This document shows positions 1,599 to 2,550 of a stretch of DNA of 64,000 nucleotides, piece after piece. Below the pieces are notes generated by a model. It saw only the letters and a list, made by a program, of their open reading frames with translations. It was not told the origin of the DNA and did not search any database. The stretch lies in contig CP145409.1 in NCBI GenBank assembly GCA_036867785.1, forward strand, positions 1,488,001 to 1,552,000, written 5' to 3'. A program made the position numbers and the translations under genes. The DNA comes from Plasmodiophora brassicae. Its lineage: Eukaryota. Each line of letters starts with the position of its first letter. Positions within the stretch are counted from its first letter, which is position 1.

Positions 1599-2550
1599 CG
1601 ATATGATGACCGGCCGGCTGGAACATGGTAAAATAGCTGGTCGAAGGTTGCTAACTGTACATAGGCAACGAGGAACAACGACGCGAAAACGGAAAGGACG
1701 TCGATCGGACGCACGGTGCGCGGAGCACCTGCGTGGGCACGGGGCCCGAACCACTGGGCATGGGACTCAGTCTGGGAACATTCAGCAAATTGGCCACTGA
1801 ATGGGATCATGTACCAAATGGAAACCAACGGTACGGAACTCGCATATGCATGGGGAAACACTCCACCACAGTCGGATCCTAAAGATTGGACTTCGGCTAA
1901 CCCTGGTAGTCGAACGGACGCCAGTCATCGGACTCCTAAAGATTGGGCTTCGGTGAACCGATATCGGATGGGAACGGAACTAACTACGGATGCACATGGC
2001 TGGACGCGGTGTGGGTATTCCTGGTGGTTGCGAGCGGAACTTACTGGACGCAGTAGTGAGCTCACAACCGGCGCTGATGTAGTGTGTTGGACGCAACTCA
2101 CAGAATCAGTGCATGGGGAACTGGAACTGGAATTGGATGGAACCTGGTGCGAATTGGGAACTGCGGGAATTGGAAATGCTGCCTTAATGTCGGCGTATGA
2201 CTTGTCGTACACCACATGGGGACGGTTGGCTGGATCACTGGGAAATATGGAACATTTGGTGACTCGCTGGAGTGATTTGGAATGGATGGGTGCCTGTAAC
2301 GAGGTGGCCACCTCCCACGTGGGGGTGGATGTCGTCAGTATGGCTGAGAACTGTTAGCACTATGCTGACATGGTCCGGCGAATCTGATTCACTCAACTCC
2401 GTCCTTATTGCGATGAGTCTAATCTCAAGAAACGGGCGTGACCAATCTGAACGCGCACACGAACCAAGTAACGCCTACGTGTCGCACGAATGCAGCAACG
2501 AGCCTACGTATCTCTACGTCTGCATCCAGGTCATGTTCGGAAAAGGGCAG

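Follow-up and report, generated by a model that had tools for sequence, protein, structure and literature searches.

Three tandem GACG-loop hairpins in the 3' UTR of a Plasmodiophora brassicae chromodomain Gypsy family: a probable selected RNA structure and a candidate dimer-linkage contact

The window analysed here is a stretch of 64,000 nucleotides from Plasmodiophora brassicae (GenBank assembly GCA_036867785.1, contig CP145409.1, positions 1,488,001 to 1,552,000), and it opens within the 3' part of an LTR retrotransposon (Table 1). The pol frame ends at 1598 and the polypurine tract (PPT) begins at 2539, so the untranslated region (UTR) between them measures 940 nt, in agreement with the roughly 950 non-coding nucleotides that an earlier, sequence-only reading of this DNA had described. 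The full-length frame of the family has the order reverse transcriptase, RNase H and integrase, with a chromodomain (Pfam; Chromo below the cut-off), and LTR pairs, 4-bp target duplications and a PPT are present in the family, which identifies it as a Ty3/Gypsy family with a chromodomain. The best protein match of the element is from P. brassicae itself, at 55% identity, the level of a sister clade in the same genome. The family Gag contains a C-X2-C-X3-H-X4-C knuckle, read by eye; a search of this Gag for a zinc knuckle of canonical spacing returned none.

Table 1. Features of the Gypsy element and of its truncated second copy, numbered from the first nucleotide of the window
Feature	Positions	Strand	Basis or remark
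3' end of pol: integrase (zinc-binding and core domains) and chromodomain	3..1598	+	Pfam rve, Integrase_H2C2, Chromo (just under cut-off); ORF end
3' UTR, 940 nt, pol stop to PPT; hairpin series	1599..2538	+	
Perfect 10-nt palindrome CCGAUAUCGG, 16 nt 5' of hairpin 1	1958..1967	+	in 10/10 copies
Hairpin 1, loop GACG 2003-2006	1984..2024	+	GACG tetraloop is a minor predicted fold in the window copy
Hairpin 2, loop GACG 2047-2050	2026..2069	+	GGA/GA internal loop; 3' arm contains a 10-nt palindrome, 2056-2065
Hairpin 3, loop GACG 2090-2093	2071..2112	+	GUA/AGA internal loop; 42/42 nt the same in both subfamily-B copies
Weakly structured GGAA-rich stretch	2113..2287	+	indel-variable between subfamilies
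53-nt segment also found in this genome in the 3' tail of a non-LTR-like repeat family	2288..2340	+	
Only CGUCC of the UTR; possible intramolecular partner of a GGACG loop	2400..2404	+	chance-level
Polypurine tract (PPT)	2539..2550	+	abuts LTR
3' LTR, 182 bp	2551..2732	+	identical to the 5' LTR located upstream of the window
CCGAUAUCGG palindrome in second, 5'-truncated copy (subfamily B)	59234..59243	+	
Second copy of the three hairpins, loops 59279, 59323, 59366	59259..59388	+	all GACG loops predicted, P >= 0.99

A DNA search of the genome (25.3 Mb, 20 contigs) gave 12 matches, which correspond to 11 elements, and placed the array in one family alone. It is uninterrupted in 10 of the 11 elements. 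In the eleventh (L043; G000:C13, ~309600-315700), a sister-clade Gypsy has inserted immediately next to loop 3 and produced a 4-bp target duplication. Eight of the ten uninterrupted copies form a young subfamily A, with UTRs 92–99% identical to that of the window copy, and two truncated copies form an older subfamily B (76–80% identical), one of them at 58.5–60 kb of the window. In a rearranged copy (L045:1690-1780), the UTR from hairpin 3 on is joined, inverted, to an LTR end. Other repeats share the window: a Harbinger-type (DDE_Tnp_4) transposase-like frame just 3' of the LTR (2825-3679, minus strand), another Gypsy family with a chromodomain (15943-21600), whose frame runs to 1737 codons, whose UTR is short at ~300 nt and whose LTRs measure ~120 bp, and three near-identical tandem units of ~10 kb plus a partial fourth, each with a Copia-type element (~25200-56200), which are either a genuine tandem array or a feature of the assembly.

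The array lies 386–514 nt past the pol stop and ~430 nt short of the PPT, and its three hairpins are each ~42 nt in size and share the loop context YUG-GACG-CR. The three GACG loops were found exactly where the sequence-only reading had placed them. The segment 1985-2112 folds at -54.3 kcal/mol (z -3.30; 1 of 200 shuffles equally stable), and in a 120-nt scan of 1401-2800 the array gave the strongest plus-strand signal (z -2.8). All three stems are broken by bulges or purine-rich internal loops. The description of every hairpin as capped by G-[GACG]-C holds for hairpins 2 and 3, whose GACG loops in the window copy are closed with P ~1.0 in both short and long contexts, but only in part for hairpin 1, in which a shifted 5-nt loop is preferred and the tetraloop is a minor predicted fold in seven of ten copies. 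There the closing G-C pair has P 0.00–0.17 (GACG closing 0.03–0.06 in the window copy), seven of the eight young-subfamily copies being poorly predicted at this loop, against 0.97–0.99 in three copies (L004, L009 and L013). The stem originally quoted for hairpin 1 also needs amending, as it includes C2021, which is private to the window copy and is G in 9/9 other copies and in contigs from 4/4 runs.

Shuffled UTRs contained three or more GACG-loop hairpins in 17 of 2000 cases. A 42-kb non-redundant part of the window was surveyed for triples of any one tetraloop within 120 nt: 8 of 512 loop/strand combinations showed them, and for three of these (AACA+, TTAA+ and TTAA-) the triple sits in what appears to be one tandem repeat; such triples are therefore uncommon, not unique. 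The plus strand folds at -60.3 and the minus strand at -41.9, and seven of the 48 pairs are G.U; the wobble-type changes described below and these G.U pairs point to a structure that acts in sense RNA. A minus-strand or DNA structure is disfavoured by the weaker fold and the G.U pattern, with one counter-signal, a single 120-nt window that scored z -3.7 on the minus strand and -2.8 on the plus strand.

All three GACG loops are kept in 10 of 10 uninterrupted copies. Between the window copy and the subfamily-B copy L009, hairpins 2 and 3 have 1 difference in 87 nt, while the remaining UTR has 115 in 745 aligned nt plus 66 gap positions (Fisher p 2.6e-5); for L013 the corresponding figures are 4 of 87 and 104 of 601 (p 0.0014). 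The contrast is effectively one evolutionary branch, and the region was selected after inspection. Hairpins 1–3 taken together differ from L009 at 7 of 129 nt; hairpin 1 by itself differs at 6 of 41 between the subfamilies, which equals the background rate, and fourfold-degenerate integrase sites differ at 8 of 49 in the same comparison. No indels separate the subfamilies within 1984-2112. None of the five changes common to both subfamily-B copies breaks a pair, two being U.G-to-C-G conversions and three falling at unpaired positions, and the fixed differences in hairpin 1 all preserve the fold. By contrast, 7 of 12 private changes break a pair, close to the random expectation of 55% (shared versus private, one-sided p 0.04; null tolerated fraction 0.45). 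Conservation across family copies, to which the sequence-only reading had tied its proposal, thus came out divided: the loops are invariant, but two-sided pair changes were seen among the copies at 0 of 48 pairs, and the covariation score of the array was equalled or exceeded in 380 of 500 shuffles. Loop invariance within the family is by itself weak evidence at this divergence, the chance of 12 unchanged loop nucleotides at ~15% divergence being 0.85^12, or ~0.14.

The loops differ from the arms in a further respect. Pairwise, the arms of the three hairpins are identical at only 8–13 of 34 nt, and two of the six arm comparisons rank slightly above shuffles (43 and 48 of 1000), while the loop hexamer GGACGC is common to all three. 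It follows that the loop was either kept as the stems were rewritten after an old triplication, or gained repeatedly. On comparative sequence evidence, the array is probably an RNA structure under selection on the sense strand and a lineage-specific cis-acting module. A hidden ORF was considered and rejected: a 230-codon sense frame and antisense frames in the UTR are destroyed by between-subfamily indels, and no frame is common to the subfamilies.

The palindrome CCGAUAUCGG forms a weak hairpin in the monomer and a 10-bp intermolecular duplex (-15.6 kcal/mol) in the predicted homodimer. Any palindrome would pair in this way, and shuffled UTRs contain on average 0.7–0.8 palindromes of 10 nt (subfamily B has two), so that CCGAUAUCGG alone is weak evidence. 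Just 5' of it, a 26-nt direct repeat (1877-1902 and 1934-1959) folds into two hairpins whose loops read CUAAAGAUU, and a shortened version of it occurs in subfamily B. Of the 19 sister-clade UTR rows listed (L062 not among them), 16 have a 14-nt site AUGAUC-NN-GAUCAU 5' of the hairpin arrays, in which NN is AU, UA or UG and all forms are self-pairing. A palindrome followed by tandem hairpins therefore recurs in the lineages with long UTRs. At the other end of the element, the 5' LTR is followed, where a tRNA primer site would be expected, by a perfect palindrome of 12 nt (L031:3715-3726, a short way 5' of the window); this palindrome is intact in six of seven copies checked, and the sister subfamilies carry different palindromes there.

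The 3' ends of 36 further Gypsy loci from the same genome were compared with that of the window element. Families at ~35% integrase identity have mostly short UTRs (~190–320 nt where a PPT was found). The sister clade, at 55–58% integrase identity, has UTRs of 670–770 nt and comprises four subfamilies with 70–87% mutual identity (8 rows in the subfamily tree). One of them (L046, L047, L048 and L056; 57% integrase identity) has three hairpins at a similar position with the loops GACGU, GACGU and GACG, a set matched in 14 of 2000 shuffles; the other three have 0, 0 and 1 GACG-loop hairpins. In the subfamily nearest to the L046 type (87% integrase identity; 573 of 724 nt identical over the whole UTR), the stems are kept, with 8 of 80 paired nt different, nearly all one-sided and compatible, but the loops read CAAGU, CGAU and ACAG, and 6 of 10 nt differ in the first two. 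The closest relative of the L046 type thus keeps the stems and changes the loops, which indicates that GACG is not required clade-wide.

No alignment links the window array to that of L046, which the covariance model built on the window array also fails to detect. Run against 30 loci of other families, the same model gave no hit (best 11.7 bits, E 0.21). On the eight-row subfamily tree, two independent GACG gains and one ancestral state with several losses are both possible. A search for the two-loop pattern gave at least 80 loci, and among the matches listed two had both sites in stems of at least 4 bp. Metagenome contigs returned no relative in a single-protein search; a profile search gave 37 loci at 24–45% identity, many with short 3' flanks (0–2446 nt), and the 21 that extend to the end of the integrase carry at most one GACG hairpin each. 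No relatives were found in viral contigs.

Dimerisation of Moloney murine leukaemia virus (MoMLV) RNA is started by the palindromic SL-A and SL-B, the GACG loops of SL-C and SL-D add kisses of two G-C pairs, and NC binds a UCUG linker (PMC5874298, PMC7599994). The likeness to this gammaretroviral core encapsidation signal (CES) lies in tandem GACG-tetraloop hairpins in a retroelement RNA (PMC5874298, PMC7599994), set directly 3' of a palindrome that may correspond to the dimer-initiation hairpin. The window array differs in standing in the 3' UTR instead of the 5' leader, in having three hairpins instead of two, in belonging to a protist Gypsy and in not being kept throughout its own clade. 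UCUG does not occur between 1775 and 2382, the only UTR occurrences being at 1771, 2383, 2446 and 2519. When both window copies were scanned directly against Rfam, RF00374 (Gammaretro_CES) did not match at E <= 10, and neither did it in a genome search in which 52 of 7168 candidates were scored; no credible Rfam family was found at either window copy (best E 5.8 and 5.2), in two tail-repeat loci or in two sister loci. Membership in the gammaretroviral CES is ruled out by position, the missing adjacent UCUG and the absent RF00374 match. Of the two origins proposed for such a signal, convergence is plausible and relocation found no support.

GACG hairpins also recur in separate retroviral lineages, Maedi-Visna virus and RD-114 (PMC516450, PMC5874298). 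These are vertebrate retroviruses; the Visna site lies at nt 281–300, and the RD-114 loops adjoin dimer-initiation elements (PMC516450, PMC5874298). Among LTR retrotransposons, Ty1 RNA dimerises via the palindromes PAL1 and PAL2, with contacts in the 5' UTR, where proposed kissing loops were not confirmed, and known dimer sites lie near the 5' end (PMC6844567). Ty3 packaging depends on UTR or POL sequences (PMC4974528). In the parts of these Ty1 and Ty3 accounts that were consulted, GACG hairpins go unmentioned (PMC6844567, PMC4974528). GACG arrays in the 3' UTR of a Gypsy element were not reported anywhere in the literature searched, outside which most subscription papers lie.

By analogy with these systems, we tentatively propose that the array is a cis-acting 3' UTR module that may serve as an auxiliary dimer-linkage and packaging contact, a reading with somewhat less than an even chance. 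In the 3' UTR of the genomic RNA, the module would combine a short perfect palindrome with three GACG-capped hairpins of equal size downstream of it. On the MoMLV model, two RNA copies would first pair via the CCGAUAUCGG palindrome, and the GACG loops would then add three intermolecular kisses of two G-C pairs each; GACG would here be the same minimal two-base-pair kissing motif as in gammaretroviruses. The dimer would give the element's own Gag a family-specific handle, perhaps via the unpaired GGAA-rich flank. Such a module would be convergent with gammaretroviral SL-C and SL-D, not descended from them, and lineage-specific, sister lineages filling the same place with other sets of hairpins and palindromes. 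The conservation peak, the sense polarity, the invariant CCGAUAUCGG, the GACG array of the sister subfamily and the MoMLV and Ty3 precedents support a dimer contact. Against it stand the 5' position of known dimer sites and the 12-nt palindrome that the element already has after its 5' LTR, together with the lack of covariation, the poorly predicted loop of hairpin 1, the sister stems with changed loops and the absence of an adjacent UCUG. A broader scenario, which we consider unlikely, is that this Gypsy clade moved or duplicated a dimer-linkage signal into the 3' UTR as a palindrome with tandem hairpins, that the loops would be a subfamily identity code, and that three GACG loops were reached independently in two lineages of one genome. 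On this scenario, the palindrome found in place of the tRNA primer site might cooperate with the 3' UTR signal, and the array would be, within the literature searched, the first of its kissing type known beyond vertebrate retroviruses and their endogenous kin.

The evidence for selection fits equally well with a post-transcriptional element for nuclear export, localisation or decay protection of the long 3' UTR, an explanation that we regard as the main rival, possible but somewhat improbable. The repeated GGACGC loop and purine-rich internal loops would then bind a host protein, to whose multivalent binding three equal-sized hairpins with one loop would be suited, or a loop would kiss CGUCC at 2400 intramolecularly. 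The parallel is the transport element (MTE) of MusD, an LTR retrotransposon in which ~400 nt of stem-loops with a kissing loop likewise lie between pol and the 3' LTR, adjoining the latter (PMC4588558, PMC3362945). A structured element between pol and the 3' LTR, as in the MusD type, is present here; the MTE kiss differs in being intramolecular, from loop to internal loop, and the likeness is one of layout, the array having no Rfam hit. Hairpin 3 plus 3' arm is complementary to 2384-2404, which would suit an intramolecular contact, but CGUC occurs four times in the UTR, and L004 and L013 no longer have the CGUCC site. Moreover, related families of the same genome manage with UTRs of ~190–320 nt, and the other loops of the sister subfamilies are awkward for a shared host factor.

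Those changed loops on conserved sister stems would instead suit a generic structured spacer, in which selection acts on the stems only (compaction, stability, pausing of reverse transcriptase or template switching) and the loops are left from an old triplication. The four-fold tandem-repeat hairpins in the L050-type sister UTR and the two arm comparisons marginally above shuffles also agree with it. However, arms that have diverged to 8–13 of 34 nt around a hexamer kept three times are the reverse of what free loops would be expected to leave, and a second lineage also has three GACG loops; we hold the spacer explanation to be distinctly unlikely. The remaining explanation, that the array is functionless, its conservation peak a recombination or gene-conversion patch between subfamilies and its hairpins incidental, draws on the comparison of only two subfamilies, the truncated state of both subfamily-B copies, the contrast of nearly identical hairpins 2 and 3 with a hairpin 1 at background rate, and the lack of two-sided covariation. 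It is nevertheless very improbable, as the fold-preserving fixed differences in hairpin 1 and the z of -3.3 speak against it, and conversion between copies does not explain three identical loops on unlike stems.

Outside yeast, the signals by which LTR retrotransposons package and dimerise their RNA are poorly defined (PMC4974528, PMC6844567). The array offers a compact candidate of ~150 nt with natural controls: GACG loops occur in one sister subfamily, whose closest relative combines the same stems with different loops. It would bear on whether the GACG kiss is a convergent solution for pairing retroelement genomes and on whether co-resident families keep their RNAs apart by loop sequence.

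In the UTR as a whole, GGAA occurs 20 times against a shuffle mean of 7.9, a count reached in 0 of 500 shuffles. A 5'-3' cyclisation was rejected, as the first 600 nt and the UTR pair at best with -28.6, which does not improve on shuffles (-28.5 to -34.9). The 53-nt segment is 83–91% identical to part of a non-LTR-like 3' tail (L018-L030), and sister Gypsy UTRs contain a hairpin that resembles it, as judged by eye; neither the segment nor the tail repeats matched Rfam in scans of the window and two tail-repeat loci. The repeat family to which the tail belongs has an RNase H upstream and a (TAAAC)n end; among the matches listed, 15 places lie outside the Gypsy family. At one of four places scanned, a tRNA-Asn gene is followed directly by the same tail (L023:1649-1720, minus strand; L084), which makes it a candidate tRNA-derived SINE.
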